A stretch of 30,339 bases of DNA. Source: Hymenobacteraceae bacterium. Lineage in GTDB: Bacteria; Bacteroidota; Bacteroidia; Cytophagales; Hymenobacteraceae. A model generated the notes under the pieces. It was not told the origin of the DNA and did no database searches. It saw nothing but the letters and a program-made list of their open reading frames with translations. The translations under genes and the position numbers were made by a program. The stretch spans positions 1-30,339 of the forward strand of contig JANPJM010000087.1 of NCBI GenBank assembly GCA_031425525.1, given 5' to 3'. Positions within the stretch are counted from its first letter, which is position 1. Each line of letters opens with the position of its first letter. Positions 303-28,225 of the stretch are shown piece after piece.

Positions 303-526
303 CTAACTGAGGACGCTCGCTCCGGCGTTGTTGAGCAGCTTATGTAGTAGGCTCACAGGCGAGTATCTTACTATGCTTGCTGCCGACCCGAAGCATCAGA
401 ACAAGTCCGGCAGACGTGCCACCCCACTATCCTTCAAAGCATCCACGAACCGTTCGTATTGCTGGGTTTCCATAATAGACTTGTTGCGTCGGCTCCTCTC
501 GTGGAAACGCGGGGCACTGGTGGTCT

Positions 527-600
527 CGAACCCTCTAGGGTTCTATTCCACAGCCTGGGATTGCTATCCCGAAGGGATTGCTACCCCAGGCGGGCGCCGC
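527..600. repeat. copy 1 of a roughly 75-nt intergenic repeat with a nested hairpin core CCTGGG-ATTGCTAT-CCC-GAA-GGG-ATTGCTAC-CCCAGG (554-590)
   Basis: About 80% identical to 4703-4770. The outer 6-bp stem CCTGGG/CCCAGG and inner stem CCC/GGG are both intact. Flanks ttattccac and cgggcgccg are conserved. Confidence 0.7.
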
Positions 601-820
601 GCCGACGCCGCGCGCCTGGGCCAAAAACTTCCCCCATCTCGTCGGCTACTACGCCACCGCTCACACTGCCCAACAGGGCGGTAAACGCTGGCGCTACCTG
701 CTGCGGGTGTATTTCATTGGATATTCGACGCCGAGTGGGAAGCCCGGCACGGGCGGTTCCGGCGCGCGATGTACGTATCAGGGTATCACCTAGAGCAGTT
801 TTGGAGTCGGTGTACGGGTT

Positions 821-887: not shown

Positions 888-1022
888 AACCAGCTGCCGC
901 ACGTCCATAGACGCCGAATCTGCTCTAAATCGACACCCGCCTGTCAATGGTCAATGGCTGCGCTGCGCTCGTACCGATAAAACCAACCGCCTGACCCCGC
1001 TTAGCGGCCCGCTTCATCCGCT

Positions 1023-1925
1023 TCAGGCATCGCCCGGCGTAATGATTCCGTCCTGACCGCTTTTGGTTTTCATATTTACCAGAATGCGGTGAAGAGTTTC
1101 GGCGGCCAGTCCGTGCAGCACCAGGCGGTACGCCGCGCTGTAAGTTGTTTCGGGCACCATCGGGTGCTTGTTGTTCACTAAACCCAGGTGGGCCGGCGTG
1201 TTCAGGATCTGGGCGGTGTAGATCCCGATGGTTTCATCGAGCTGGAGCGAGTTGGAGGCCCGGAGAAAGTCGTTCGACGTCAGAAAAAACTGGTAACAGG
1301 GCGTGAACAATTCGATGGCCGAGCGCAGGTCGAGCATATTAGTCCACTTATTCGGAAATTCGATGTGGTGGAATTGATCCGGGGTAATCATCGTGAGGTC
1401 GGGCCGGGGCTTGCCGCGAATCACGATATTCTTCTCGCGCAGTTGGCCGTTGAGGCGGATGACGAAATTGTAGAGGTTCAGGTCGTGCCGTAAAAACAGA
1501 TCGTCTTTGATATCCGCAAAATCGTAGGGCTTCAGCGGCGTGGTTGTTACTTCCACCCCTTCGACGTTTTTGGCGATAAATTCCATAATCTCGCTGCCCA
1601 CGTGAAAATGGCGGAAAATGAGCAGGTTGGCGTCCGGGCTGACAAAGTGCTTCAAGCCCCACGCCAGGAGGCGGTGCAGCAGCCGCGAAGAATTGACCAG
1701 GTTCGGGAAAAAGAACTTGAAGATGTGAATCAACAGCATACTCGCCTTCGACCAGATCCGGATCAACGGCAGCAGGTACCGGGCCGTGCGCGAATTGTTG
1801 TCGCGCATCAAGCTGAGCTTGGTTCGGTCGTTGATCGGAATGCTGCTGTCGAGGTACATCGCCAGCCAGGGGTTCGGGTCGCGGTCGTCGTGGGAGGCAA
1901 TGTCTAGCTCGGGATCGTTATTCAT
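1023..1925 (-). CDS. hypothetical protein (300 aa), last gene of the hydroxylase-KAS operon; function not recognisable from sequence
   Basis: Clean 300-codon ORF with ATG at 1925, 41 bp downstream of the KAS-fusion stop on the same strand. GC is lower (about 55%) than neighbours. No motif I can assign confidently. Confidence 0.6.
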   Translation of the reverse strand: MNNDPELDIASHDDRDPNPWLAMYLDSSIPINDRTKLSLMRDNNSRTARYLLPLIRIWSKASMLLIHIFKFFFPNLVNSSRLLHRLLAWGLKHFVSPDANLLIFRHFHVGSEIMEFIAKNVEGVEVTTTPLKPYDFADIKDDLFLRHDLNLYNFVIRLNGQLREKNIVIRGKPRPDLTMITPDQFHHIEFPNKWTNMLDLRSAIELFTPCYQFFLTSNDFLRASNSLQLDETIGIYTAQILNTPAHLGLVNNKHPMVPETTYSAAYRLVLHGLAAETLHRILVNMKTKSGQDGIITPGDA

Positions 1926-1966
1926 GGGTTAATGAAGTTAGAGGACAGAAGTTACGCAGTCTCCTT

Positions 1967-3844
1967 CTAATAATTCCCCAGTTCCTCCAGTTGCATTCGG
2001 TAGAGGCGGGCGGTGGTTTTGGCGGTTTTCACGATCCGTCGGGCTATTTCGAGGTTCATTTTCGGGTGATTGAGCGCCTGCTCCAGGTTCCGGAAATGGT
2101 TTTCGTCGGCTAACCCGTGATAGGTAAAAAAAGACACCTGATCGTCGGTCAGCCCGAGCTGCTGCTGCATCAGCGCGCCCCAGCCGGCCGCCAGGCGCTT
2201 GCCGATGCCCTCGATGATGAACATCGCGCCGAGCAGGTCGATAGGGTTCGGCTGGCTGGCCTGCTGGAACACAAAGGCGCTCAACGCCAGGCTGCCGATG
2301 TTCTTTTCGCCGCGCCGGATGATTTCCGGATCCTCGCCAAGGTTCTCGAAATTGCGCTCCAGGAGTTGGTAATCGCGGTGTTCGGCCGCAGTGTGCCGGA
2401 TGAAGGCCGAGCGCAGCTCGAACAGCTCGATGTCGATGTTCGACGCGGCGCGGGCAATCCACTGCGAGCCATCGATTACCTGCTGGCGCAGGTCGGTGAG
2501 GAGCAGCCGGTAATCGGCTCGACTGAGCTGGCCGTCGTGGATTTTTTGCACGATCGGCACTTTATACAGCCCGGTTTCAAATGCCACCCACACCTGCGTG
2601 AGCTGCCGGACCAGCCACTCCGAGGTTTCGGTTTTTTCGAGGTTCAGCTCCGGGGCCACAATCGGCGGCAGGGCTACTTGCTGCGGGGCCGGGCCGCGGT
2701 CGGCGCCCGCAGCGCCCGCAGCGCCCACTACCCGCAGCTGCATAAAGGCCGTCACGAAACGGCCGCTTTCGGGCACCATACACAGGATGCGCTGGCCGGA
2801 CGTTAACCGGCCGGAATACAGCAGCTCTTCGAGCATGATAAAGAGCGACGCCGAACCGGTATTCCCTTTTGAACTCAGGTTGCTGAACCACTTTTCCGGC
2901 GCGATTTCGGCGCCTCCTTGCTTCATCAGCGCGCGGGTAGGCTCCTTGAAGTATTCCGACGAATAGTGGCAGCAGAGCCAATCGACGGCAGCGACGCTGA
3001 TCTTACCCCGATCAATCAACTCGAAAAAATGGGCGACGCCGGTTTTCACCACGTCGTCGAGCAGACGGATATCCTGCTTGAGGTTGATGGCGCCGGCCCG
3101 CGCCGCCGATTCAAAATCCGGATAGTCGAGCCAGGTAGGTTCGTGGGGGTCTTTATTGCTGTTTTGGCCGGCGTACATACACACCGGAAAGGTGGGCGCG
3201 TGCGAGCGCACCTCGACCCACTCGATGGCGAGCGATAGGCCGCCGGGCGCGGGCTGGTCTTGCACCACGAGGGCCCCGGCGCCGTCGGACAGCATCCAGC
3301 GCAGAAACTCCGTCGCGAACGGCAGCGAAGTCAGCTGCTGCGCCTCGAAACGGGAGGCTTTGAACATTCGGCTCGCAAACTCGCTGCCCACGCACACGGC
3401 GTTGCGCACGTCGCCGCACCGAATCAGGGCGGCGGCATGCTGGAGGGCCATCAGGCTGCTGGCGCACACACTCTGGAAGCTGGCCAACGCGCAGCTCGAA
3501 AAATCAAGCTCGCCGTGTACCATACTGGCAAAGCCGGGCACAGGCAGGTCGGCTTGGGTGGTGCCGGCGCAGAGCAGCTCCACGTCGCGCCCGGTCAGGG
3601 TGCTGCGTTCCAGCGCGCGCTCGATGGCCCGGGCAGCCATCGCGGCATTGGAATACTGGCTGTTCTGCTGCCGGTCGAGGGCGTAGTAACGGGTTTTAAT
3701 CCCGTTTTGCTGGAGAATCCGATCCCGGGCGGCGCTTTTTTTTCCATGCACCTGGCCCAGGTACTCCTCCATTTCGTGGTTAGCCACCGGCGGGCCCGGC
3801 AGAAAAATACCGGCGGCGGTGATGTAGGCCTGCTTCATTTTCAT
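1967..3844 (-). CDS. 3-oxoacyl-ACP synthase III (KAS III/FabH-like thiolase-fold condensing enzyme) fused to a C-terminal heme-oxygenase-like (iron-containing redox enzyme/HDO-type) domain; 625 aa
   Basis: Starts MKMKQAYITAAGIFLPG. Condensing-enzyme motifs are present: active-site Cys in DFSSCALASF, and the GNTGSASLFIMLEELL Asn motif. An Ala/Gly-rich linker is followed by a domain with E..H and YHGLADENHF (H-x3-D-x2-H) motifs typical of heme-oxygenase-like diiron enzymes. The ORF runs continuously to 1967 with no internal start. The ATG at 3842-3844 overlaps the upstream gene stop (ATGA). Confidence 0.7.
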   Translation of the reverse strand: MKMKQAYITAAGIFLPGPPVANHEMEEYLGQVHGKKSAARDRILQQNGIKTRYYALDRQQNSQYSNAAMAARAIERALERSTLTGRDVELLCAGTTQADLPVPGFASMVHGELDFSSCALASFQSVCASSLMALQHAAALIRCGDVRNAVCVGSEFASRMFKASRFEAQQLTSLPFATEFLRWMLSDGAGALVVQDQPAPGGLSLAIEWVEVRSHAPTFPVCMYAGQNSNKDPHEPTWLDYPDFESAARAGAINLKQDIRLLDDVVKTGVAHFFELIDRGKISVAAVDWLCCHYSSEYFKEPTRALMKQGGAEIAPEKWFSNLSSKGNTGSASLFIMLEELLYSGRLTSGQRILCMVPESGRFVTAFMQLRVVGAAGAAGADRGPAPQQVALPPIVAPELNLEKTETSEWLVRQLTQVWVAFETGLYKVPIVQKIHDGQLSRADYRLLLTDLRQQVIDGSQWIARAASNIDIELFELRSAFIRHTAAEHRDYQLLERNFENLGEDPEIIRRGEKNIGSLALSAFVFQQASQPNPIDLLGAMFIIEGIGKRLAAGWGALMQQQLGLTDDQVSFFTYHGLADENHFRNLEQALNHPKMNLEIARRIVKTAKTTARLYRMQLEELGNY

Positions 3845-4572
3845 TTCTTTGTTGGCTGCCGCCAGCCTTCGAGCCGGTCGAGCAGGTCGGTGGCGAAGCC
3901 GTAGCCTCCCCGGTTCAGGTGATGATGACTGCCGTGGCGGGTGGCCAGCAGCGACCAGGGGCGGCCCCGGCCGTCGCCGAACCGGTAATTGCAGTGGCCC
4001 GCGAAATTGAGCAGGATGCTGGCCAGCGGATACAGCAAGATGGCGGTGGCCGAGAAATCGACCCACGGCGCGATGGTCAGCGGCACGGTGCTGAGTAGCA
4101 GCGCCTCGAACCAATGGAAACTGTAAACCGAAAACACCGTGGGCACCTTGGAACGGTGATGCACGTAGTGCACCCGCCGATACAGGAAAGGCAGGTGCAG
4201 CAAGCGGTGCACCCCGAAAAAATGCACCTCGTTCCAGAGCGTGAGCAGCGCCAGCCCCACTACAGTGTTGGCCAGGGTGTCGGGCCGCAGCACCACCACC
4301 CCTTGGCGCACCAGGTACACCATGGCCACGCCCGAGAAGCCAAACAGGAGCATAGAAACCACCGAGTTCCGAATCTCGAACGGCACCTGCCGGCCCGGCG
4401 GCGGCGGCGGCCGGATCTGGTGTACCAGGCCCCACTTCGCCAATTGCCGGCACCCGCCCAGGAAAAGCGGCCCAAGCCCGAAATACAGCACCGCAAAATA
4501 CGCCACGGTGAGCCCGTACACCTGCTGGTACGTGCTGTCGTGCAACATCCAATGGAGCAGTTTGGGGAGCAT
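3841..4572 (-). CDS. fatty acid hydroxylase superfamily integral membrane enzyme (sterol desaturase/CrtZ-like, His-box diiron)
   Basis: 243 aa with several hydrophobic segments and histidine boxes HRLLH, HYVHH, HGSHHH. Its stop TGA (3841-3843) overlaps the KAS III start codon. Confidence 0.75.
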   Translation of the reverse strand: MLPKLLHWMLHDSTYQQVYGLTVAYFAVLYFGLGPLFLGGCRQLAKWGLVHQIRPPPPPGRQVPFEIRNSVVSMLLFGFSGVAMVYLVRQGVVVLRPDTLANTVVGLALLTLWNEVHFFGVHRLLHLPFLYRRVHYVHHRSKVPTVFSVYSFHWFEALLLSTVPLTIAPWVDFSATAILLYPLASILLNFAGHCNYRFGDGRGRPWSLLATRHGSHHHLNRGGYGFATDLLDRLEGWRQPTKK

Positions 4573-4702
4573 AGGGCGGTAGATAAGTAGTCAGCCATAA
4601 GCTTTTAGCTGTAAGCCGCAAGCCAGACCATTGACTGGCAAAAAGTTACGGGGCTCGCGTTAGCAATTTACTTGTGGCGCCGTACTTAAAGGTACTACCC
4701 GG

Positions 4703-4770
4703 CCCGCAAACCCCGAAAGGGCTTTATTCCACCGCCTGGGGTTGCTACGCCAACGGCGTTGCTACCCCAG
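4703..4770. repeat. copy 2 of the intergenic repeat; core CCTGGG-GTTGCTAC-GCC-AAC-GGC-GTTGCTAC-CCCAGG (4725-4761)
   Basis: Aligns with 527-600. The inner stem has changed CCC/GGG to GCC/GGC with pairing preserved (compensatory change). Lies in the 221-bp spacer between the regulator stop (4794) and the hydroxylase start (4572). Confidence 0.7.
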
Positions 4771-4793
4771 GCGGGCGCCGGGCGCCCCCCACC

Positions 4794-5570
4794 CTATTTC
4801 AACAGCTCCCCCACCAACGCCTCCAGCCGCGCTACGCGCGCATCGAGCAAGGCGGGCGGCGCGGGCGGGGCCGTCAGCACGGCGTGAATTTGCCAGAGTT
4901 CCAGCACTTCCTTGGGCGGCACTTCGCGCGGGGGGTAATCGGGGTTATCGGCGGTGAGCGATAAGGTGAGATCGGTTTTGACCCCTGCCAGGCGGCGGAT
5001 GAGCGGGCCGGTGCGAACTACCACCGCGTACAACTGGCCGGGGATCGGGGGGGCGGCGCCCGCCGTTAGCCCGGCGCGCGCCGCCACTACCACATCGTGC
5101 GGCCGTAAGCCGCCGCCGGGGTGGGTCATCTCGGAGGTGCCCACCTCGAAGGCGCGCGTCACGGGGCCGAGCGCCAGCGGTAGGATCAGGTGCGGCAGCG
5201 TGGCGACCCACGCGGGATCCTGGCAGCGCATACCGTACGCAAGCTGCTGCGGCAGACCGACGTAGGGCGTCAGATGCGCAAGTTCGTCGGGTGGGGCGGT
5301 GGGCTCGGTGAGGTGCGCCGCGTGCCGCTGGTGCTGGTACACGTCGAAGTGCAGCAGGTCGTTGACGGTCAGCTCCTTGGTGAGCAGCAGGTCGACGGAA
5401 ACGCCGAAGTACTGCGCAATCTGAATCAGTGTGTCGGTTTTGGGCTCGGCCCGCCCCTCTTCCCAGGCCCCGACGCTGGGCCGCGCCAACCCGAACAGCT
5501 CGGCGAAGGCCGCCTGGGAAAGCTTCTTGACGGTGCGAATCTTCCGGATGTTGGCGCCGATACAGGACAT
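4794..5570 (-). CDS. XRE-family HTH transcriptional regulator with a C-terminal LexA/S24-peptidase-like domain
   Basis: N-terminus MSCIGANIRKIRTVKKLSQAAFAELFGLARPSVGAWEEGRAEPKTDTLIQIAQYFGVSVDLL is a classical XRE HTH. The C-terminal part has GTSEM (compare LexA GDSM) and LIRRL where LexA has VKRL. The ATG at 5570 is preferred over the TTG at 5591 used by the ORF track. Confidence 0.7.
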   Translation of the reverse strand: MSCIGANIRKIRTVKKLSQAAFAELFGLARPSVGAWEEGRAEPKTDTLIQIAQYFGVSVDLLLTKELTVNDLLHFDVYQHQRHAAHLTEPTAPPDELAHLTPYVGLPQQLAYGMRCQDPAWVATLPHLILPLALGPVTRAFEVGTSEMTHPGGGLRPHDVVVAARAGLTAGAAPPIPGQLYAVVVRTGPLIRRLAGVKTDLTLSLTADNPDYPPREVPPKEVLELWQIHAVLTAPPAPPALLDARVARLEALVGELLK

Positions 5571-5762
5571 AGGCAAATCTTTTTGGCTCAAACGATGAGC
5601 ATTTTCAAAACTTATTCGTACTATTGTGCCGTAAATCTACGACCAAAAGCTTCAAAACCGCAAGCAAGTTGCTGCATTTTTGAGCAATGCCTGCTTTTAT
5701 GCAGCCCAACTGCCCCCGTCGCCTACCTTAGCCCGCCCTTCCGTACTTACCCGCTCAGCCCG

Positions 5763-6173
5763 ATGCCTAACCCGTACTTCGACAAAATTCGGCAGTACCT
5801 CCACGAGTTGGGCGGTACCGTGGCAGTGGCAGACCCCGCCACCGGCGTTTTTGTGGTCAGCAAGCCCGAATTGGGCATTTACCAGCTCGTGATCGGGTGT
5901 GCCGACCCGCTGCTCATTCTGGAGCAGCACCTGCTCATCCTGCCCGAGCCGACCCTGCGGATTTACCAGCGGCTGCTGCAAAAAAACCGCGACATCATTC
6001 ACGGCGCGTTCGTGCTCGACGATACCGGCCGCCGCGTCATCTTCCGCGATACGCTCCAGATCGGTACTCTCGACCGCGACGAGCTGGAGGCGTGTTTCAA
6101 CTCGCTCGGGCTGCTGCTGAGCGAGTTTGCCACCGAACTGATTGCCTTTTCCAAGCCCACTTTCACTTCCTAA
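5763..6173 (+). CDS. small cytoplasmic protein, YbjN/DUF2170 (YjfI)-like putative sensory-transduction regulator; first gene of the PspA operon
   Basis: 136 aa, starts MPNPYFDKIRQYLHELGG. Sits 16 bp upstream of pspA in the same orientation. E. coli yjfI (DUF2170) precedes the PspA paralog yjfJ in the same way. The family assignment is by gene order and general appearance, not by a verified motif. Confidence 0.35.
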   Translation: MPNPYFDKIRQYLHELGGTVAVADPATGVFVVSKPELGIYQLVIGCADPLLILEQHLLILPEPTLRIYQRLLQKNRDIIHGAFVLDDTGRRVIFRDTLQIGTLDRDELEACFNSLGLLLSEFATELIAFSKPTFTS

Positions 6174-6189
6174 GCCTGACCCCAATCCG

Positions 6190-6906
6190 ATGAGTATTTT
6201 TTCCCGCCTTTTCAAAATCGGGCAGGCCGAAGCGCATTCGGCCGTCGATAAGCTCGAAGACCCCATCAAACTCACCGAACAAGGGCTGCGCGATTTGCGC
6301 ACCGAGTTCGACAAGGCGCTGCATGCCCTCGCCGATGTGAAGGCGATGGTGATCCGGGCGCGCACCGACGGCGAGCAGGCCCGCCAACGCGCCGCCGACT
6401 ACGAAGACAAGGCCATCCACCTGCTCCAGCGGGCGCAGCGCGGCGAGCTGGCCGCCCCCGAAGCCGACCGCCTCGCCGGCGAAGCCCTCCTCAAGAAGGC
6501 CGAACACGACGCCCACGCCACCCGCGCGGCAGCCGATCAGGAACGGTTCGCGCAGTCGGCGAACCAGCTCGATCAGAACGTGCAGCAACTCAAGGGCACG
6601 ATGGAAAAGTGGGAAAACGAGCTAAAAACCCTTAAAGCGCGCGTGCGCGTCAGCACCGCCACCCGCACGATCAACGAGCAGCTCGCGCGCCTCGATTCGA
6701 CGGGCACCATCGCGCTGCTCGAACGGATGAAGGAGCGCGTCGCGCACGACGAGGCGCTGGCGGAGTCGTACGGCGAGCTGGCGCAACGGCACCGCAACGT
6801 TGACGCCGAAATCGACCGCGCCCTGACCCAGGCGCCCGCCGACCGTGCCCAGCACGCGCTCGACGCGCTCAAAGCGCGGCTGGCGCTGCCGCCGGCCAGC
6901 GAGTAA
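6190..6906 (+). CDS. pspA: PspA/IM30 (phage shock protein A/Vipp1, ESCRT-III-like) family protein
   Basis: 238 aa, starts MSIFSRLFKIGQAEAHSAVDKLEDPIKLTEQGLRDLRTEFDKAL..., the canonical PspA N-terminus. The rest is long helices with coiled-coil character and an Ala/Arg/Glu-rich composition. Confidence 0.85.
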   Translation: MSIFSRLFKIGQAEAHSAVDKLEDPIKLTEQGLRDLRTEFDKALHALADVKAMVIRARTDGEQARQRAADYEDKAIHLLQRAQRGELAAPEADRLAGEALLKKAEHDAHATRAAADQERFAQSANQLDQNVQQLKGTMEKWENELKTLKARVRVSTATRTINEQLARLDSTGTIALLERMKERVAHDEALAESYGELAQRHRNVDAEIDRALTQAPADRAQHALDALKARLALPPASE

Positions 6907-6944
6907 CTTGACACTGTACCTGTAGGTAATAGCCAGCGTTCTGT

Positions 6945-7364
6945 ATGGGCTCTTTCAACGTATTGCTTCAATTCGCGCACCATCAGCATTCCGAAAATGA
7001 AGAACACTGGTGTACGACTCCCGAGGAAGTAACGGCGCTGTTCGATGCGTTTGACTGGGCCGGTGAAACCGATAAATCCAACCGGCTCGAACGCGTCTCG
7101 CCGACCCTCAGCGTCGAAACCCGTCAGCCGGCGGCATTGCTGTGGGTGTCATCCATCGGCGACGCGCCCAATCTGGAATTCATCTCCGAGTATACGTTTC
7201 CGGCCGATACTACCCGACTCTTTGGCTTGTGGTCGGGCTCCGGTCGCAAAACCCTGCACACCAGCTCGTTCACTTTATTTCAGGCGCGAGAAGCGGTTGC
7301 GCTGTTCACGCGCCAGGCACAAGCGGAATTACTCGCCCTCTATCATTCAGCCGGCACCCGATGA
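6945..7364 (+). CDS. hypothetical soluble acidic protein (139 aa) between pspA and the YqiJ-like gene
   Basis: ORF with ATG at 6945. Its stop TGA (7362-7364) overlaps the ATG (7361-7363) of the next gene. No recognisable motif. Confidence 0.5.
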   Translation: MGSFNVLLQFAHHQHSENEEHWCTTPEEVTALFDAFDWAGETDKSNRLERVSPTLSVETRQPAALLWVSSIGDAPNLEFISEYTFPADTTRLFGLWSGSGRKTLHTSSFTLFQAREAVALFTRQAQAELLALYHSAGTR

Positions 7365-8017
7365 CCGAACTGCTTCAAGCGGCCGTTGCGCCGCCCAACC
7401 TGCTGCCGACGGCGCTGCTGGTCTTCGTGGTGCTGTACTGGCTGTCGGTGATGATCGGGCTGGTGGGGTCGGATGCGCTCGACCTGCACCACGACTTTGC
7501 GCACGATGTGGGGCACGACGTGGGCCACGACCACCCCGGAACGCACGGCGGCCTCGGCACCGACTGGCTCAACAACGCGCTGGCGTTCTTCAATCTGGGA
7601 CGGGTACCGCTGATGTTCTGGTTGTCGTTCGTGGCGCTGCCGCTCTGGGTGGGCAGTATTCTGGTGAACTACGAACTGGGCAATACGTCGGGGCTGGTTG
7701 GGCTGGCGCTGCTGCTGCCGCTGCTGCTGGTGAGCCTGTTCGTGGCCAAAATCCTGACGCTGCCGTTCGTCAAGCTGTTTGCGGCGATGGAAAAAGACCA
7801 CGGCGCCGGCGCGCAGCCCATCGGCAAGGTGTGTACCGTGGTGTTGCCCGCCACCCACGCGCTGCTCGGCCAGGCCAGTATTCGCCTCCCCGACGGCGCG
7901 CCGCTCACGCTCAACGTGAAAGCACTCTCGCCGACCGCTACCTTTCGCAAAGGCGACCAAGCGCTCGTGATCGATTTCGACGCCCAGCGCCGGTGCTATC
8001 TGATTGAGCCCTATTGA
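7361..8017 (+). CDS. YqiJ/DUF1449-like inner-membrane protein with a C-terminal NfeD-type OB-fold (flotillin partner)
   Basis: 218 aa with an N-terminal TM helix, a His/Asp-rich segment DLHHDFAHDVGHDVGHDHPGTHGG, further TM helices, and a C-terminal beta-rich GKVCTVVLPATHALLGQASIRLPDGAPLTLNVKALSPTATFRKGDQALVIDFD resembling the NfeD OB-fold. It is immediately upstream of a flotillin gene, as in E. coli yqiJ-yqiK. Confidence 0.7.
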   Translation: MTELLQAAVAPPNLLPTALLVFVVLYWLSVMIGLVGSDALDLHHDFAHDVGHDVGHDHPGTHGGLGTDWLNNALAFFNLGRVPLMFWLSFVALPLWVGSILVNYELGNTSGLVGLALLLPLLLVSLFVAKILTLPFVKLFAAMEKDHGAGAQPIGKVCTVVLPATHALLGQASIRLPDGAPLTLNVKALSPTATFRKGDQALVIDFDAQRRCYLIEPY

Positions 8018-8019
8018 TC

Positions 8020-8051
8020 GCTGATGTAGCTGATTGTCTGATTCCGCTGAT
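8020..8051 (+). promoter_or_regulatory. four tandem (G)CTGAT motifs at 9-bp spacing (8020, 8029, 8037, 8046), with additional TGAT motifs at 8001 and 8015
   Basis: Read directly: gCTGATgtaGCTGATtgtCTGATtccGCTGATttg. Lies in the 140-bp spacer before the flotillin gene. Confidence 0.4.
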
Positions 8052-8102
8052 TTGTTGAGTTGCCACATCGAACCCTACTAAACCGTCTGCTTCCTGCGCT
8101 GC

Positions 8103-8132
8103 GGGCGGGCACAAGGCCCGCCCCTACTTTTT
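8103..8132 (+). promoter_or_regulatory. GC hairpin (GGGCGGGC-acaag-GCCCGCCC) followed by CTACTTTTT; either an internal intrinsic terminator/attenuator or a Bacteroidota -7 promoter box (TAnnTTTG-like) for the flotillin gene
   Basis: 8-bp perfect stem followed by a T-run, 26 bp upstream of the flotillin ATG at 8158. The same hairpin+TACTTTTT arrangement recurs at 10333-10362. Confidence 0.45.
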
Positions 8133-8157
8133 CGGTTATCTTCCCCAATTCCCTCCA

Positions 8158-10332
8158 ATGATTGCCCAACTTTCGTGGGCGGCGCTGATCATCATCGGCC
8201 TGCTGCTCCTCGGTTTTCTTTCGATTCTGGTGCGCATGTACCAGAAAGCCGTGCAGGGCGAAGCCCTGGTGCGCACCGGCCTCGGCGACACGAAAGTGTC
8301 GTTTTCGGGGATGTTCGTCATTCCCATCATTCACCGGTTGGAGGTGATGGATATTACCCTCAAATCGATGGTGATTGCGCGTCACGGGGCCGAGGGGTTG
8401 GTGTGTAAAGACAACCTGCGGGCCGACGTGAAGGTCAATTTTTTCGTGCAGGTCAATAAAACGCCCGGCGATGTGATTCACGTCGCGCAGAGCATCGGCT
8501 GCCGGCGCGCTTCCGACCCGGCGGCGCTCGAAAACCTCTTCGACGCCAAGTTTTCCGAAGCGCTGAAAGCCGTCGGTAAACGGTTCGATTTTATCGAGCT
8601 GTATAATTCCCGCGAAGAATTCAAGCAGGAAATTTTGCGCGTCATCGGCACCGACCTCAACGGCTACGTCCTCGACGACTGCGCGATTGATTACCTGGAG
8701 CAAACGCCGTTGTCGGCGCTGAATGAAAATAATATTCTGGACGCCGAGGGCATCAAGAAAATCATTGCGCTGACGTCGGAACAGAAGATTCAGGCCAACC
8801 AGATCGAGCGCGACAAACAGCGCACGATTAAAAAACAGGACGTGGAAGCGCAGGAAACCATTTTGCAGCTCGAAAAGCAATTGGTGGAAAATCAGGAAAA
8901 GCAGAAGCGCGAAATTGCCAATATCAAAGCGCGCGAGGCGGCCGAAACCGAGAAAGTCATTCAGGAAGAACGGTTGAAGAGCGAGCGCGCCAAGATTCAG
9001 ACCGACGAAGAATTGCAGGTGGCCGGGCAAAACCGCGACCGGCAGATCATCGTGGCCGAGCGGAACAAGGAGCGCACCGACGCCATCGAAACCGAGCGGG
9101 TGGCCCAGGCCAAAGCGCTGGAAGCCAACGAGCGCGAGCGCATCGTGGCGCTGGCGCAGATCGAGAAGGAAAAAGCCCTCGAAGAAGAGCGCAAGAATAT
9201 TCAGGGCATCATCCGTGAGCGGATTACGGTGGAAAAAGCCACCGTGCAGGAGGAGGAGAAAATCAAGGATACCCGCGCCCAGGCCGGCGCCGAGCGCGAA
9301 AAAATGGTAGCGCTCACAGCCGCCCAGCAACTGAACCAGGCCGCAACCATCGCGCTGGTCGGGCAGGCCGAAATGGGCAAGCAAGCGGCCGAGTTCCGGG
9401 CGAAACAGGCGTTGATCGATGCCGAAGCCGAGCGCGGCACCGCCGAGCAGCACGCGCTGGCCGTGAAAGTGCTGGCGGAGGCAGAGGCGAGCAAAACGTC
9501 GGCCGTGGGGCTGGCCGAGGCCCAAGTGATGCAGGCCAAAGCGGGCGCGCGCCAGAAGGAAGGCGAAGCGGAAGCGCACGTCATGCAGCTTACGGCGACG
9601 GCCGAGGCGCAGGCGATTCAGGTGAAAGCGGTGGCGCAGGCCGAGGCCGACGAGAAGTTGGGGATGGTGGCGGCGAAAGTCAATCGCGAAAAAGGGCTCG
9701 CCGACGCCAGCATCATCGAAGCGCGCGCCGACGCCGACCAGAAGAAAGGTTTTGCCGAAGCCGCCGTGAGCGAGCAGAAATTTGCGGTGGAAGCCAAAGG
9801 CATCGAGGCGAAAGCCGACGCGATGAAGAAGCTCGACGGGGTGGGCAAAGACCACGAAGAGTTCAAGCTCCGGCTCGACAAGGAGAAGTCGGTGGAGCTG
9901 GCGCAGATCAGCATCCAGAAGGATATCGCTGCCGCGCAGAGCGCCGTTATCGGCGAGGCCCTCAAGGCGGCGAAAATCGACATCGTGGGCGGCGAAACGA
10001 TGTTCTTCGACCAGATCATCGGCTCGATCACGAAGGGTAAGATGATCGACCGGGCGGTGCAGAACAGCGAGGTGCTGGGCACGGTGAAGGACGCGTTTTT
10101 CGGCCCCGGCGCGGGCGGCGACGGCGACTTCAAAACCAATATGCGGCGGTTCGTCGAGCAGTTCGGCCTTAAGTCCGACGACATCAAGAACCTGAGCATT
10201 TCGGCCCTGATGCTGCAAATGATGCAAACCACCGACTCCGACAGCACGCGTTCCGCGCTCCGCCAACTGCTCGACACGGCCACCACGCTGGGGCTCGCCG
10301 ACAAGCCCGTGCGGACGATTGATTTGACGTAA
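8158..10332 (+). CDS. flotillin-family protein (SPFH/band-7 domain, YqiK-like) with a very long coiled-coil region; 724 aa
   Basis: N-terminal TM MIAQLSWAALIIIGLLLLGFLSILV, then an SPFH-like domain (VRTGLGDTKVSFSGMFVIPIIHRLEVMDITLKSMVI...), then hundreds of residues of E/K/A/Q-rich heptad-like repeats typical of flotillins. Confidence 0.85.
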   Translation: MIAQLSWAALIIIGLLLLGFLSILVRMYQKAVQGEALVRTGLGDTKVSFSGMFVIPIIHRLEVMDITLKSMVIARHGAEGLVCKDNLRADVKVNFFVQVNKTPGDVIHVAQSIGCRRASDPAALENLFDAKFSEALKAVGKRFDFIELYNSREEFKQEILRVIGTDLNGYVLDDCAIDYLEQTPLSALNENNILDAEGIKKIIALTSEQKIQANQIERDKQRTIKKQDVEAQETILQLEKQLVENQEKQKREIANIKAREAAETEKVIQEERLKSERAKIQTDEELQVAGQNRDRQIIVAERNKERTDAIETERVAQAKALEANERERIVALAQIEKEKALEEERKNIQGIIRERITVEKATVQEEEKIKDTRAQAGAEREKMVALTAAQQLNQAATIALVGQAEMGKQAAEFRAKQALIDAEAERGTAEQHALAVKVLAEAEASKTSAVGLAEAQVMQAKAGARQKEGEAEAHVMQLTATAEAQAIQVKAVAQAEADEKLGMVAAKVNREKGLADASIIEARADADQKKGFAEAAVSEQKFAVEAKGIEAKADAMKKLDGVGKDHEEFKLRLDKEKSVELAQISIQKDIAAAQSAVIGEALKAAKIDIVGGETMFFDQIIGSITKGKMIDRAVQNSEVLGTVKDAFFGPGAGGDGDFKTNMRRFVEQFGLKSDDIKNLSISALMLQMMQTTDSDSTRSALRQLLDTATTLGLADKPVRTIDLT

Positions 10333-10362
10333 GCGCGGACATTCTGTCCGCGCTACTTTTTC
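10333..10362 (+). terminator. hairpin GCGCGGACA-ttc-TGTCCGCGC followed by TACTTTTTT; intrinsic terminator/attenuator between the flotillin and giant ATPase genes (alternatively a -7 promoter box)
   Basis: Perfect 9-bp stem with a 3-nt loop and a T-tract, starting directly after the flotillin stop (10330-10332). The motif ends 6 bp before the ATG at 10368. Confidence 0.5.
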
Positions 10363-10367
10363 TCCGA

Positions 10368-13300
10368 ATGGAAACCCCTCCTCCCCCGCAGCTCGAAGGC
10401 GGCACGTACGAAATTCTGCGCGCCCGCCTGACCAAGAGCGGCGCCGACCTGCGCGCGCGCCTCACGGCCCTCAATGCCGAGCGTAAGCAGGTATTCGGGG
10501 CCGTCGATACGCGCCTGATCGGCACGGGCCGGATCACCACCGAACACCATTGCGTGCCCTGGAATATGGTGCCGGTGGGCGGGCGGTTTCTGTTCGGTTT
10601 CAACGTGGTACTGGGGCTGAAAACGGAGGTTGAGCTGAGCGACGTATTCGGTATCTACGACTACACCGACCACGATTTCCGCCCCCAGCCGCTCGATGCG
10701 TTGCGCGACCCCCGGTTCGAGGAGGAGTTTCGGAACCTCTACCGCTTCTACCGGCAGACCCAGTTTTCGGCCTTTGCCGTGCGCGGGCCGCACCTGTTCA
10801 TGGTGTTCCGGGTGGGCAAGAGCGCCACGGATGTCAAGACGTTCAAGTGGCTGATCGGCGCCGACGACCGCCTGACCTACCTCGACAACCGCTCCGACCA
10901 CGAGTACACCTTTCCGCCGGCGCAGGAATTCAGCTGGAAGCGCGCCACCCGCGATATGCAGCGCGGCGGGCGCCACCCGCACGTCTCGATTGAAGACCGC
11001 TGCTTCGTGGAAACCGTCGGCGGCGACCTCACGATCAAAGTCGAAGACAATACCGAAATCGGCCAGGGCATCCTCTCCGAGCCGGTCGAGCAGAAAGATC
11101 AGTCGCTCGATGACGCCGAGATTCACTACGCCGTAGTCGGGCATTTGGTGCTGCTCAAGATTCGGCCGTATCAGGAAGCCGCATTTCGCCATTTTTTGTA
11201 CAACGGCAAGACCCGGCAAGCGCGCCGCCTCGATGCGCTGGCCGACGCCGTGCAGTTGCTGCCCGACGGTCAGGGGTTGATTTTCCCCGGCGGCGTGGCC
11301 TTGCAGAACGGCGAAGGCAAACAGTTTGAGAACGCCCCCGCCGACACGGTTTTCGAGCGGCGCGTGGCCTCGCCCAACGGCGAAGACTACCTGTACTGCT
11401 TCTATCAGCGCACCAGCGGGCAGTATTGGCTGCTGAGCTACAACCGCATCGAGCAGCGCGTGGAGGCGCCGATTGCCTGCCACGGCTTCGCCCTCTTCGA
11501 CAACGGCGAGCTGTGCTTTTTCCGCGCCGAAGAAGAGCCGCGCAAGCACCACGCCGTGCAAATCTGGCAGACGCCCTACACCGCGCCCGACTACGAGTTA
11601 CCCGTCACGCGCGACTCGTACCTCTACAAACTCGGCAACAAGGAGATCGTGCGGGCGCTCGCCGAAGGGCAGGAAGTGCTGACCCTTACGGCCAAGGAAG
11701 ACAGCTACGCCGGCCTGTACCTCGACCTCGGCCGCCTCACCACCACCCTGCTCGACGCCTACCACTGGCTCACCGAACCCGCCGCCCAGACGCTGGCCGA
11801 GCCGTTGCGCGAGATTCGGCAGACGGCGCTGGCCGCCGTCGAGGAGTTCGATAAGGTGCAGCGGATCCGCAGCGCCACGGCCGCCGAAACCACCCTCGTG
11901 CTGACCCGCGCCACCGACCTGAGCGCCCGCCTGAAGCGCGCCGCGCCCGACACCGTGGCCGCCTACGTGCAGGCGCTGGCCGAGCTGCGGGCCGCGCGCG
12001 GCGAGGTGGTGGGCCTACGCGAACTGCGCTACGCCGACCTGCCCGCCATCGAGCGGGCCGCCACCGAATTGGAACTGCTCACCCAGGTGACGGCGAACCA
12101 GACGGTCGAATTCCTGCTCCGGCCCGACGCCCTCGCGCCCTACGAGCAGCGCGTGACGGCCATTGCCGACGGCATCGAGGGGGTGCAGAAAACGGTGGAA
12201 GCCGATGCGCGGGAGCAGGAAATCGGGGCGGTGTCGGGCGAGTTGGAACTGCTGATCGATGTAGTGGGCGGGCTGCCCATCCCCGACCCCACCCAAACCA
12301 CCGCCATCATCGAGCGGCTGTCGGCGATCTACGCCCGCTTCAACCAGATCAGGGCCGCCCTCAAGCGGCGGCGGCAAAGTTTGGCGGGCACCGAAGCCCA
12401 GGCGCAGTTTGCCGCCCAGCTCCGGCTGCTCGATCAAACGCTCGTCAATTACCTCGATCTGAGCGATACACCCGCCAAGTGCGACGAGTACCAGACCCGT
12501 CTGCTGGTGCAGCTCGAAGAAATCGAGGGGCGTTTTCCGGAGTTCGAAGGATTTTTGGAGCGCCTCACCGAGAAGCGCGAAGCCGTCCTCGAAGCGTTCG
12601 AGACGCGCAAGGCGGCCCTGGTGGCGGCCCGCAATCAGCGCGCAACGGCCCTGCTGCAAGCCGCCGAGCGCCTACTGACCGCCGTGCGCAGCCGGGTAGC
12701 GCGCCTGACCACCGCCGCCGAGCTGAACGGCTACTTTGCCGCCGATGTGCTGGTGGCGAAGGTGCGGCAGACGGCCGCCGAGCTGCTCGCCCTCGGCGAC
12801 CCGGTGAAGGCCGACGACGTGCAGGGGCGCCTCAAAACCCTGCGCGACGAGAGTCTGCGCCAACTCAAAGACCGCACGGAACTGTACACCGATGGCGGGC
12901 AGGTGATCCGGTTCGGGCCGCACGCCTTCACCGTAAACCAGCAACCGCTGGAACTCACGACGGTCTTGCGCGACGAGGTACTGCACTTTCACCTCACGGG
13001 CACCAACTTTTTTCAGCCCATCGCCGACCCCGCCATCGAGGCTGCCCGCGACCTGTGGGATCAGCCGCTACCGTCGGAAAACGCCCACGTGTACCGCGCC
13101 GAGTGGCTGGCGTGGCAGTTGCTGGAAGCAGCGGCCCACCCCGTCCCCGCCGACCCCGAACGCGGCACGCCGGCCGTGCTGTCGCTCCCGGAACTGGCGC
13201 ACCTCACGCCCCCCGAACTGCTGGCCTACGTGCAGACCGCGATGGCCCCGCGCTACCCCGAAGGCTACCTCAAGGGTGTCCACGACCACGACGGCGCCCT

Positions 13301-15293
13301 ACTCCTCGAAGCCCTCGTGCGCCTGGCCCGCACCGCCGACCTGCTGCGCTACCCCGCCGAGGCCCGCGCCGCCGCCGCGCTGTGGTGGGCGCAATTTGCG
13401 CCGCCCGAGCGCCGCGCGGCCTGGGAACTGCGGTTGCGCGGCCTCGGGCAGTTGCAGCGGGTGTTCCCCGGCGCCGATGCCAGTGCGGCGCTACGCGCCG
13501 AAATCGGGGCCGAGCTGGCGGCCTTCCTCACGCAAACCCAGCTTTTCGACCCGGCCGCCGTGGAAGAAGCGGCCGATTACCTTGTCACGGAGCGCGCGCG
13601 CGGCACCGCGTTCATCATCGCCGCCGAAGCCGCCGAACTGAGCCGCCTGTTCTGGCAGACCGTGCGCGAGCGCCAGGCCGATGCCGTCTTCGATGAGTCG
13701 ATGGCGGAGTTGGCCGCGCAACCCGCCGCCCGCTTTGCGCTGGCGCGCGAGTGGCTCGGCGCCTTTCTCGCCCAGCAACCCGCCGACGCACCGGCCGGCG
13801 CCCTGCGCCCGTGGCTGAGCGAGGCGGCATTGTTGCTCGTCACCGATTCCTTTGACGCCGCGCACGTCGTGAGCGTGCCCACGCGCCTCACGCTCGACGG
13901 TTTGCAGGGTACGCACCCGCGCATCCACGAACGCCGTTACGAGCTGGATTTTCCGGAGTTCCGCCACCGGCTGCGGCATTTCGGGCGCGTTACGGCGCCC
14001 CGGTTTGCCCACTTCACGGCCCTCAAAAAGGAGCGGCTTGCGCACGCCGCCGAGGCGCTGCGGCTCGCCGATTTTCAGCCGCGCGTGCTGTCGTCGTTCG
14101 TGCGCAACCGCCTGCTCGACCAGGTGTACCTGCCGCTGATCGGGGCTAACCTCGCCAAACAGATCGGCACGGCCGGCACCGACAAGCGCACCGACCTGAT
14201 GGGCCTACTGCTGCTCATCTCGCCGCCGGGCTACGGCAAAACCACGCTCATCGAGTACGTGGCGGCGCGCCTGGGGCTGGTGTTCGTGAAGGTCAGCGGC
14301 CCGGCGCTGGGGCATCACGTTACGGCTGTAGACCCCGAACAGGCGCCCAACGCCGGGGCCCGCGACGAGCTGCGGAAGCTGAACCTGGCGTTCGAGATGG
14401 GCGACAACGTGCTGATTTACCTCGATGACATCCAGCACTGCAACCCCGAGTTTCTGCAAAAATTCATCTCCCTCTGCGACGCCCAGCGCCGCATCGAGGG
14501 CGTGTGGGAGGGCCGCCCGCGCACCTACGATTTTCGGGGCCGCAAAGTGGCCGTCGTGATGGCCGGCAACCCCTACACCGAATCGGGCGACGTGTTTCGG
14601 CTGCCCGATATGCTCGCCAACCGCGCCGACATCTACAACCTCGGCGACATCATCGGCACGTCCGCCGACGCCTTCCGGCTTTCTTACCTCGAAAACAGCC
14701 TCACGGCGAACCCCGTTTTGCGGCGCCTCGCCACCCGTAGTCCCGCCGACTTTTACCCGATTCTGCGCCTCGCCGAAAGCGCCGATCAGGGGGGCGCCGC
14801 CGAGCCGCTCGACCTCGAAGCGAATCACTCGCCGGAAGAAATAGCGGAGTACGTGGCCGTGTTGCGCCACCTGCTGATCCTGCGCGACGCCGTGGTGCAG
14901 GTCAATGAGGCGTATATCGCGTCGGCGGCTCAGGCCCAGGATTACCGCACCGAGCCGCCCTTCCGGCTGCAAGGCTCCTACCGCAACATGGCCAAGCTCG
15001 CCGAGAAGGTGCAGCCCCTGCTCAACGCCGCCGAGCTGCAAGGGCTCCTCGCCGACCACTACGAAAGCGAGGCCCAGACCCTTACCACCGCCGCCGAAGC
15101 CAACCTGCTCAAGCTCCGCGAGCTACTCGGTTGGCAAACCCCCGCCGACACCGCGCGCTGGGCCGAAATCAAGGCGACGTTTCAGCACAATCTGCGCCTG
15201 AGCAGCGGCGGCCAAAACGCCCAGATGCTCGAGCAGCTCACGAGCATTGCCGGGGGGCTGGCGGGGATTCGGGAGGTGTTGGGGCGGGGGTAG
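10368..15293 (+). CDS. giant (1641 aa) multidomain protein: unknown N-terminal domain, about 800 aa helical/coiled-coil middle, C-terminal MoxR/dynein-type AAA+ (AAA_5-like) ATPase module
   Basis: Uninterrupted 4926-bp ORF. Walker A LLLLISPPGYGKTTLIEY (about 14228-14245), Walker B NVLIYLDDIQH (about 14409-14440), and sensor-1/Arg-finger region VAVVMAGNPYTESGDVFRLPDMLANRADIY. The middle is Ala/Leu/Glu/Arg-rich helical sequence. The antisense strand also has long open frames, as expected for this composition. Confidence 0.8.
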   Translation: METPPPPQLEGGTYEILRARLTKSGADLRARLTALNAERKQVFGAVDTRLIGTGRITTEHHCVPWNMVPVGGRFLFGFNVVLGLKTEVELSDVFGIYDYTDHDFRPQPLDALRDPRFEEEFRNLYRFYRQTQFSAFAVRGPHLFMVFRVGKSATDVKTFKWLIGADDRLTYLDNRSDHEYTFPPAQEFSWKRATRDMQRGGRHPHVSIEDRCFVETVGGDLTIKVEDNTEIGQGILSEPVEQKDQSLDDAEIHYAVVGHLVLLKIRPYQEAAFRHFLYNGKTRQARRLDALADAVQLLPDGQGLIFPGGVALQNGEGKQFENAPADTVFERRVASPNGEDYLYCFYQRTSGQYWLLSYNRIEQRVEAPIACHGFALFDNGELCFFRAEEEPRKHHAVQIWQTPYTAPDYELPVTRDSYLYKLGNKEIVRALAEGQEVLTLTAKEDSYAGLYLDLGRLTTTLLDAYHWLTEPAAQTLAEPLREIRQTALAAVEEFDKVQRIRSATAAETTLVLTRATDLSARLKRAAPDTVAAYVQALAELRAARGEVVGLRELRYADLPAIERAATELELLTQVTANQTVEFLLRPDALAPYEQRVTAIADGIEGVQKTVEADAREQEIGAVSGELELLIDVVGGLPIPDPTQTTAIIERLSAIYARFNQIRAALKRRRQSLAGTEAQAQFAAQLRLLDQTLVNYLDLSDTPAKCDEYQTRLLVQLEEIEGRFPEFEGFLERLTEKREAVLEAFETRKAALVAARNQRATALLQAAERLLTAVRSRVARLTTAAELNGYFAADVLVAKVRQTAAELLALGDPVKADDVQGRLKTLRDESLRQLKDRTELYTDGGQVIRFGPHAFTVNQQPLELTTVLRDEVLHFHLTGTNFFQPIADPAIEAARDLWDQPLPSENAHVYRAEWLAWQLLEAAAHPVPADPERGTPAVLSLPELAHLTPPELLAYVQTAMAPRYPEGYLKGVHDHDGALLLEALVRLARTADLLRYPAEARAAAALWWAQFAPPERRAAWELRLRGLGQLQRVFPGADASAALRAEIGAELAAFLTQTQLFDPAAVEEAADYLVTERARGTAFIIAAEAAELSRLFWQTVRERQADAVFDESMAELAAQPAARFALAREWLGAFLAQQPADAPAGALRPWLSEAALLLVTDSFDAAHVVSVPTRLTLDGLQGTHPRIHERRYELDFPEFRHRLRHFGRVTAPRFAHFTALKKERLAHAAEALRLADFQPRVLSSFVRNRLLDQVYLPLIGANLAKQIGTAGTDKRTDLMGLLLLISPPGYGKTTLIEYVAARLGLVFVKVSGPALGHHVTAVDPEQAPNAGARDELRKLNLAFEMGDNVLIYLDDIQHCNPEFLQKFISLCDAQRRIEGVWEGRPRTYDFRGRKVAVVMAGNPYTESGDVFRLPDMLANRADIYNLGDIIGTSADAFRLSYLENSLTANPVLRRLATRSPADFYPILRLAESADQGGAAEPLDLEANHSPEEIAEYVAVLRHLLILRDAVVQVNEAYIASAAQAQDYRTEPPFRLQGSYRNMAKLAEKVQPLLNAAELQGLLADHYESEAQTLTTAAEANLLKLRELLGWQTPADTARWAEIKATFQHNLRLSSGGQNAQMLEQLTSIAGGLAGIREVLGRG

Positions 15294-15603
15294 CTTGGGG
15301 GCAATCCCAAGCGGTGGGATACAAGTCGTTTGTAGCCTCACGCCCACTGCCGACCTTTGAAGCACAGGTGCTGCACTCCAACCATCTGCTGGCCTGCGGT
15401 GGGCAACAAGCCGATAAGCTGGCTGTGCCCAACAGGAGGCGCGGCAGCGATCTGATATATTAAAAATTGCTGCGCTATATAAAACGAACACACGGCTGAC
15501 CGCCCCACCAATGACCCACAGAGCAGATCGCCCTGATTGACGCGCAACGGTTGGGCCAGCGGAACCTGCTGGTGGCGGCTCACTCGCCTATCTTGCACCG
15601 CAT

Positions 15604-27980: not shown

Positions 27981-28055
27981 TCGGGTGCAGATTTCTACTA
28001 ACGCGCCAATACCTCCTCCTTCCGGTATTCCACTCGAAGGAGCAAAAGGCCGAAG

Positions 28056-28102
28056 CAATCCGTCGCCAGACACCAGGTAGCTGACGCCGGATTGCTTCGC
28101 TG
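28056..28102. terminator. bidirectional hairpin (11-bp stem GAAGCAATCCG/CGGATTGCTTC, 25-nt loop) between the convergent tolC-like and T9SS-protein genes
   Basis: gaagcaatccg (28056-28066) is the reverse complement of cggattgcttc (28092-28102). Confidence 0.45.
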
Positions 28103-28225
28103 CGCTCGCAACGACAGAATAACCGTTGCTTCCGTCTGAACGGGTACAGAACACCGAAAATCGATCTCCGAAAAACGGCTAACGGCTAACGAGGAACGAA
28201 GAACGATCAACGAAAACCGCCCCTC

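Follow-up and report, generated by a model that had tools for sequence, protein, structure and literature searches.

A candidate family of dispersed two-hairpin palindromic repeats in intergenic DNA of Hymenobacteraceae

Two similar intergenic sequences that differ by a compensatory change in a shared hairpin stem raise the question of whether selection acts there on a structured RNA, on a dispersed palindromic repeat, or on a DNA site bound by a protein. We addressed this question in the 30,339-nucleotide contig JANPJM010000087.1 of a Hymenobacteraceae bacterium (assembly GCA_031425525.1), the whole of which we call the window. The initial annotation had described two copies with about 80% identity and had named a small RNA, a REP/BIME-like element, or a protein-bound cruciform as possible explanations. 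The similarity was borne out by a repeat finder, which aligned the first copy, W1 (core 528-591, plus strand), with the second copy, W2 (core 4708-4772, plus strand), at 83% identity over 66 nt (537-602 versus 4718-4783), including an identical 22-mer. The pattern CCTGGG-N9-CC-N3-GG-N9-CCCAGG had only two exact matches in the whole window, at 554-590 and 4735-4771, compared with a mean of 0.03 matches in shuffled sequences, none of 100 shuffles containing two. Our preferred reading, to which we assign a rough probability of 0.55, is that the copies belong to a lineage-specific Hymenobacteraceae family of small non-coding palindromic dispersed repeats, similar in kind to REP, BIME, and REPIN elements and to MITEs; a low-to-moderate copy number is the best reading of its abundance.

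The two copies share the same module. The 37-mer matched by the pattern forms one continuous imperfect hairpin, P3, with 17-18 pairs, in which the previously proposed outer stem CCTGGG/CCCAGG and inner hairpin stand, but the two RTTGCTAY units are not simply unpaired, since they pair mutually (T-A, T.T, G-C, C-G, T.T, A-T). Likewise, the compensatory change in the inner stem was confirmed but involves two pairs rather than one, C-G in W1 being G-C in W2 and the adjacent T-A being C-G. The extent of 37 nt was too small, as a second hairpin (P2), a linker, and 5' sequence also belong to the element. P2 is a short GC-rich hairpin of 6-7 bp upstream of P3, and the conserved and unpaired linker (T)ATTCCAC(A/C) connects P2 to P3 in both copies. 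The core module thus consists of P2, a conserved linker of 7-10 nt with a CCA end, and the long imperfect hairpin P3. This two-hairpin unit spans about 42-67 nt, and extra flanking sequence brings some copies to about 125-200 nt.

In W1, P2 (528-543, GAACCC-TCTA-GGGTTC) is followed by the conserved single-stranded linker TATTCCACA (544-552) and by P3 (553-591), with the outer stem GCCTGGG/CCCAGGC, the pairing of ATTGCTAT with ATTGCTAC interrupted by two T.T mismatches, and the inner hairpin TCCC-GAA-GGGA, all on the plus strand. In W2, P2 (4708-4725, AAACCCC-GAAA-GGGCTTT), which on the reverse strand forms a perfect 7-bp stem including two G.U pairs, precedes the linker ATTCCACC (4726-4733) and P3 (4734-4772) with the inner stem CGCC-AAC-GGCG, again in plus orientation. 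A 5' extension of W1 (470-527, plus strand) contains, at 470-494, the terminal motif CCATAATAGACTTGTTGCGTCGGC and, at 497-515, the small hairpin CTCTCGTG-GAAA-CGCGGGG; the corresponding extension of W2 (4668-4707, plus strand) is diverged and consists of TTTACTTGTGGCGCCG followed by the hairpin GTACTTAAAGGTAC. On the other side of W1, a GC-rich 3' flank (592-620, plus strand) contains GCCGACGC, complementary to GCGTCGGC at 487-494, as well as a second CCTGGG; whether this flank is part of the element is uncertain, as the support comes from three sequences. Small open reading frames run across the element, and their frame differs between W1 and its relative L001 described below, so they are not coding. 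A lookalike of a tRNA T-arm, GGTTCGAGACC, was considered and rejected, because it is not a tRNA and no tRNA matches W1 or W2.

A third copy, W3, diverged and short, lies on the minus strand at 15293-15334, with P2 (TACAA-ACGAC-TTGTA, 15334-15320), the linker TCCCACC (15319-15313), and P3 (GCTTGGG-ATTGCC-CCCAAGC, 15312-15293). It was matched at 15301-15321 on the minus strand by a 21-nt pattern covering the linker and the start of P3, which with up to three mismatches found three hits in the window versus 0.00 expected from shuffles. Beyond the window, we found four further copies in three other Hymenobacteraceae contigs. Scanning species-representative genomes with GCCTGGGNTTGCTA-N9-13-TTGCTA gave 17 hits, about the number estimated for chance, among which only those in two Hymenobacteraceae metagenome-assembled genomes (L001 and L007) extend beyond the pattern; the strict pattern found one locus per genome in both. 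L001 carries the W1 variant of the inner stem unchanged, and L007 carries the W2 variant in the copy L007A. The W1 extension and core are about 91% identical to L001 2883-2994 (91% over 112 nt), including about 55 nt 5' of P2 common to both, and the flanks are unrelated; the W1 motif AATAGACTTGTTGCGTCG is found again in inverted orientation on the distal side of the copy in L001. Positions 4734-4771 of W2 are 100% identical to L007 74-111, the 38-nt P3 of L007A. A second, inverted, and diverged copy in the same contig, L007B, was detected at 50 bits with nhmmer and a covariance model, so that L007A and L007B stand head-to-head. The fourth copy, at L157 4199-4265, was matched by the covariance model R1 with an E-value of about 0.003 and, together with W3, is a weaker member of the family. 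L157 comes from a close relative of the host, with a DUF6999 operon 89% identical to that of the window, and its copy lies about 2.7 kb from this operon between unrelated genes.

Other collections gave no additional member. Four hits from a metagenome collection did not extend past the search pattern, a viral scan gave no hits, and none of the 120 loci from a looser viral scan was a real match by nhmmer. No plasmid carried the element in a plasmid collection that included Hymenobacter plasmids. Run with all filters off, the seven-sequence model R2 detected nothing beyond the known copies in the window, and about 94 kb of related Hymenobacter DNA likewise gave no further copy. The window contains no gathering-level Rfam hit, and relaxing the E-value up to 10 returned only generic hairpin (miRNA) models far below threshold.

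Evidence for a maintained structure comes from the comparison of all seven copies (W1, W2, W3, L001, L007A, L007B, and L157), which were aligned by hand, padded with N to keep register, and checked row by row against their sources. Standard pairs occupied 95.1% of 143 cells in the plus sense and 97.2% of 143 in the reverse sense, values that are inflated because the alignment was fitted to the structure; none of 500 shuffles reached the observed values in either sense, a count that is not a probability because the copies are related. Controls with slid partners gave 36-62% pairing in the plus sense and 32-55% in the reverse sense. In 13 of the 23 stem pairs, both sides change, in plus and reverse sense alike. 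The first pair of P2 is G-C, C-G, or A-U, and in the outer stem of P3 the third pair is C-G or U-A and the fourth U-A or C-G; P2 reaches 100% pairing in the reverse sense. The T.T mismatch beside the outer stem is found at the same position in six copies, which argues that a particular imperfect fold is maintained rather than any palindrome. Both TTGCTA repeats are conserved in four copies and absent from W3, L007B, and L157, where the P3 interior has been replaced outright and the fold is nevertheless kept. A long-range closing stem or four-way junction (GCGTC/GACGC or GGCTC/GRGCC) might also be drawn, with three sequences in support and with the alternatives being mutually exclusive.

As far as these aligned sequences go, both hairpins are thus preserved by compensatory substitutions, whereas loops and flanks drift. 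The proposal that pairing is maintained, and that the two copies are not a decaying duplication, held up and is strengthened by the further copies: the original two are not the only ones, the changes in the others are compensatory, and they extend to the outer stem and P2. Covariation is, however, not specific to RNA. Template-switch repair in DNA quasi-palindromes can yield compensatory changes without selection on RNA. According to a figure legend in the survey of tagged repeats by Di Nocera et al. (2013, PMC3733652), REP families usually show compensatory changes as well. Because both can produce it, covariation alone is no sign of a small RNA.

The genomic setting points to dispersal. The 30-kb window has three copies at unrelated sites, and every copy is intergenic; at five of the six loci the flanking genes run in the same direction, and the neighbouring genes have nothing in common. 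W3 ends with the G of the TAG stop codon of a gene for a 1641-aa DUF3686 ATPase, and P3 of W2 ends 22 nt from the stop codon (4794) of a LexA-like HTH gene on the minus strand, so that, read in the direction of these genes, the distance from stop codon to element is 0 nt for W3 and 22 nt for W2. W2 lies between this stop of the LexA-like XRE gene (4794-5591, minus strand) and a minus-strand operon of three genes, encoding a fatty-acid (FA) hydroxylase (3841-4572), a KASIII/haem-oxygenase-like protein (1967-3844), and a DUF6999 protein (1023-1925), and W1 lies about 430 nt beyond the operon end. Gene calls on an identical public contig resolve a reading frame of 884 aa (1967-4621) into two of these genes, the FA-hydroxylase of 243 aa at 3841-4572 and a gene of 625 aa at 1967-3844. 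In eight contigs from relatives, no copy adjoins the orthologues of the LexA-like gene (loci L023-L031) and of the DUF3686 gene, and no copy lies beside the operon genes at the DUF6999 loci L152-L158. The orthologous flanks in relatives could not be aligned to the copy sites, and an exact empty site was not seen among them; homologues of the gene next to the L007 copies reach at most 49% identity.

Assembly behaviour adds to this picture. Two short-read contigs from run SRR20217183, L022 (Logan) and L159, are 100% identical to the window and terminate at 4763 and 4742, and the other end of L022, at 481, coincides with the 5' edge of W1. For an assembly with k=31, such ends would imply that the sample contains 4734-4771 as an exact repeat with different flanks, and this stretch is exactly the 38-mer that W2 has in common with L007A. 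The breaks imply more copies of 4734-4771 in the sample of SRR20217183, which may be a metagenome. At the level of sequence, related copies are shown to occupy non-orthologous intergenic sites both within one genome and across genomes.

Following the preferred reading of a dispersed palindromic repeat family, the copies would spread as a non-autonomous element whose folded ends are recognised by some enzyme, and selection would act on the folded single strand. The copies resemble REP, BIME, and REPIN elements in several respects: these are short extragenic imperfect palindromes with complementary stem changes, and P3 of 20 nt (W3) to 39 nt (W1 and W2), as well as P2 of 15-18 nt, fits a stem-loop palindrome of 20-40 bp. 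According to PMC3733652, REPs lie between unidirectional genes, form inverted dimers, and are likely transcribed; the present copies are similarly sited between unidirectional genes and near stop codons, with an occasional head-to-head dimer (L007A/B). In all seven copies a short unpaired CCA adjoins the stem, reminiscent of the CCA tails of CGTC REPs, and GTAG occurs on the gene-sense strand in six of seven. However, this GTAG lies inside the P3 stem (CCTGGG-GTAG-CAA, reverse strand) rather than in an unpaired terminal tag, there is no consistent CGTC, which abuts P3 in L001 only, and the repeated unit is two hairpins with a linker, not a single palindrome. The same survey describes RAYT-associated superfamilies with GTAG or CGTC tags, the GTAG REPs being found in Proteobacteria, Cyanobacteria, Chloroflexi, and the PVC group, and in Bacteroidetes CGTC repeats only. 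None of the seven copies bears a terminal unpaired GTAG or CGTC tag, so that the family is not a member of the tagged REP superfamilies. Whereas classical tagged REPs reach tens to hundreds of copies per genome (PMC3733652), we saw three in the 30-kb contig and 0-1 in about 94 kb of relatives. No RAYT gene was found in the window or the fetched loci.

MITEs and related mosaic elements (Correia/NEMIS, ERIC, RUP, and BOX type) offer a second comparison, being 40-200 nt long, without coding capacity, intergenic, dispersed, strongly structured, and mosaic or modular. L001 has imperfect terminal inverted repeats of 24 nt, CTACCGATTAGCCTTGTTGCGTCG against inverted CTACCAATAGACTTGGTGCGACG, with 19 of 24 positions matching and an 18-nt core about 5 standard deviations above shuffles; the motif AGMCTTGKTGCGWCG lies there at 2880-2894 (plus strand) and 3048-3062 (minus strand). 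Unlike in MITEs, however, such repeats are clear in L001 only: W1 has the left terminal motif with a right match of 8 nt, and the other copies have none. A direct target-site duplication was evident neither at L001 nor at W1, whose ends cannot be fixed to the base. No Y1/HUH or other transposase was associated with the copies in any fetched locus, the window contained no integrase or Y1 transposase, and no parent insertion sequence with matching ends was found in the window, the fetched loci, or Hymenobacter plasmids. L001 also carries a CRISPR-like array at 77-1466, with at least 22 repeats (GCTTCAATCGGACTTGCTGGAATTGAAAG) at a period of 65 nt, and a block of 21-nt tandem repeats (2468-2698) between this array and the copy. 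A link between the array, 1.4 kb away, and the element was unsupported, as no anti-repeat complementarity was detected by eye.

The strand on which the fold might act can be judged from the non-canonical pairs. Four plus-sense A.C cells correspond to G.U in the reverse sense, with one case being the opposite, and the reverse sense is the better fold in five of seven copies, an asymmetry that amounts to four cells and small energy differences. For all five copies with unidirectional neighbours (W1, W2, W3, L007A, and L157), the reverse sense is the gene sense; the orientation of L001 is ambiguous and L007B is the inverted partner of L007A. The hairpin in the 5' extension of W1 gives the opposite indication, with U.G pairs in the plus sense. 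Within the preferred reading we tentatively suggest, at clearly less than even odds, that the relevant strand is the gene sense, the reverse complement of the strand read first, and that it is transcribed in 3'-untranslated or intercistronic mRNA, where the REP-like double hairpin might work as a barrier to 3' exonucleases or as a partial read-through stop.

If selection acted on RNA and not on mobile DNA, the copies would be paralogous structured non-coding RNAs, either trans-acting small RNAs or protein-binding cis-elements in 3'-untranslated or intercistronic regions. The strong covariation in two helices, the conserved single-stranded linker, the G.U versus A.C asymmetry with an orientation bias pointing to one strand, and the apparently low copy number would all suit such RNAs, which would be new, as the family is not in Rfam. 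However, no promoter of the Bacteroidetes type TAnnTTTG lies within 160 nt of any copy in either sense, no canonical terminator was called at any copy, and the neighbour genes share nothing. The absence of the element from orthologous positions in relatives, the outright exchange of the P3 interior in L007B, L157, and W3, the terminal inverted repeats of one copy, and the inverted dimer at one locus also speak against this explanation, which we consider possible but unlikely. Equally doubtful, though worth stating, is the idea that the module with its single-stranded linker (GUGGAAUA in gene sense) represents an undescribed Hymenobacteraceae mRNA motif, such as a site at which an RNA-binding protein or RNase docks or processes the RNA, or part of a REP-like system of Bacteroidota moved by a transposase not yet tied to such repeats. 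Among the three explanations of the initial annotation, the REP/BIME-like one, broadened to MITEs, is therefore favoured, a structured RNA is possible at these low odds, and a protein-bound cruciform or operator is unsupported.

A site recognised in DNA might have been formed by TTGCTA-N11-TTGCTA within CCTGGGG/CCCCAGG, perhaps bound by the adjacent LexA-like XRE regulator. Both TTGCTA repeats are kept in four copies, and W2, and probably also L007A, adjoins a LexA-like gene, but the fold is retained in W3, L007B, and L157, from which the repeats are absent. Moreover, W2 lies at the 3' end of the regulator gene and not in a promoter, TTGCTAY does not occur in the divergent promoter of the LexA-like gene, and the eight contigs with orthologous regulator loci are devoid of the element. 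Recognition of double-stranded DNA would not predict a strand asymmetry either. We consider an operator or cruciform very unlikely.

We give even less credence to ordinary terminators or 3' hairpins that are alike by chance or convergence. Like Rho-independent terminators and 3'-untranslated stabilisers, both hairpins are GC-rich, and in W3 and W2 they follow stop codons by 0 and 22 nt in the sense of the upstream gene. In contrast to such terminators, no T run follows P2 or P3 and no U-tract would be transcribed, while the lineage does have a canonical hairpin with T run, as at L158 1320-1350. Loops, mismatch positions, and linker are conserved across unrelated loci and genomes, and the 21-nt pattern far exceeds its expectation, indicating common descent rather than convergence.

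The three-gene operon between the two first copies deserves separate consideration. It shows 89% DNA identity over 1017-4586 to L156, L157, and L158, in each of which the neighbourhood differs, the similarity is lost within 14-50 nt of the first ATG and within 6-13 nt of the last stop codon, and the operon is lower in GC than its surroundings; it may have moved horizontally as a cassette. W2 and W1 flank it in direct orientation with an identical 22-mer, as attL/attR-like or cassette recombination sites would, but this explanation is largely refuted, because the orthologous operon in the three 89%-identical contigs and its two more distant versions have no such flanking repeat, the homology runs out at 4586, 82 nt before W2 is reached, and at 1017, about 400 nt before W1, W1 and W2 are different old subfamilies each matched elsewhere and hence not halves of one event, no such cassette is flanked by W3, L001, L007, or L157, and an integrase is absent from the window. 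For the same reasons, lack of flanking repeats and homology short of W1 and W2, we rejected the element as part of a mobile operon cassette. Integron attC sites, which are likewise imperfect hairpins (60-140 nt) placed in direct orientation on either side of a gene cassette, also resemble the element in that structure is conserved more than sequence and in having a strand-specific function. However, the two GTTGCTAC units are direct repeats and not the inverted R''/R' cores (RYYYAAC/GTTRRRY) of attC, no intI occurs in the window, and most copies flank no cassette, so that the element is not an attC site.

The window and its relatives contain other features of interest. Positions 1-303 hold an IS3-family remnant, 84-86% identical to IS3 copies on Hymenobacter canadensis plasmids, with the end of orfA and its A AAA AAG slippery site near 41-48, the C-terminus of an integrase-core orfB at about 100-265, and the terminal sequence ...CCCCAGGTAGTCA. 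On the minus strand, a 25-codon open reading frame (399-473; METQQYERFVDALKDSGVARLPDLF*) starts 5 nt from the 5' edge of W1 and may be a gene stump truncated by the IS3 insertion. About 130 nt downstream of the DUF6999 stop, an inverted repeat of 27 bp with 96% complementarity and a 21-nt loop (817-891), unique among all fetched DNA, could be a terminator or another palindromic element. Sequence at 8-24 kb is similar to a plasmid of Hymenobacter sp. DG25B and, together with the IS3 similarity, marks the host as a Hymenobacter. In the gene cluster at 4794-15293, which is conserved across Hymenobacter (L023, L024, L025, and L029) and may function in stress response or defence, the LexA-like XRE/S24 regulator is oriented divergently from a CesT/Tir-chaperone-like gene, from PspA/IM30, from two genes lacking any Pfam match, and from the gene for the roughly 1640-aa protein with AAA and DUF3686 ("ATPase involved in DNA repair") domains. 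Another family of palindromic repeats, unrelated to the first, is represented at 28045-28118 (...CGGATTGCTTCGCTGCGCTCGCAACGACAG) and matches four sites in the Hymenobacter contig L025, where two long inverted doublets (4965-5095 and 7385-7500; GTCATTGCGAGCGGAGCGAAGCAATCCTCGT ... ACGAGGATTGCTTCGCTCCGCTCGCAACGAC) have the look of REPINs; this family shares the octamer GGATTGCT with P3, possibly by chance. At the contig end, 29177-30339 contains internal repeats of about 715 nt with 75-80% identity in a gene bearing a Por_Secre_tail domain.

In summary, three copies in the window and four in other Hymenobacteraceae contigs share a two-hairpin module whose pairing is maintained at unrelated intergenic sites, which is best explained by a dispersed palindromic repeat family. 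For genome scans, this result carries a caution: finding compensatory changes in a pair of palindromic repeat copies is what REP-like DNA would lead one to expect, and alone it does not point to a new regulatory RNA. Such repeats break short-read assemblies, as seen at W1 and W2, and can mislead annotation, as with the spurious open reading frames across 459-980. If confirmed, it would add a family of structured dispersed repeats to Bacteroidota, for which PMC3733652 lists repeats of the CGTC type only, and such repeats may modulate mRNA stability between genes.
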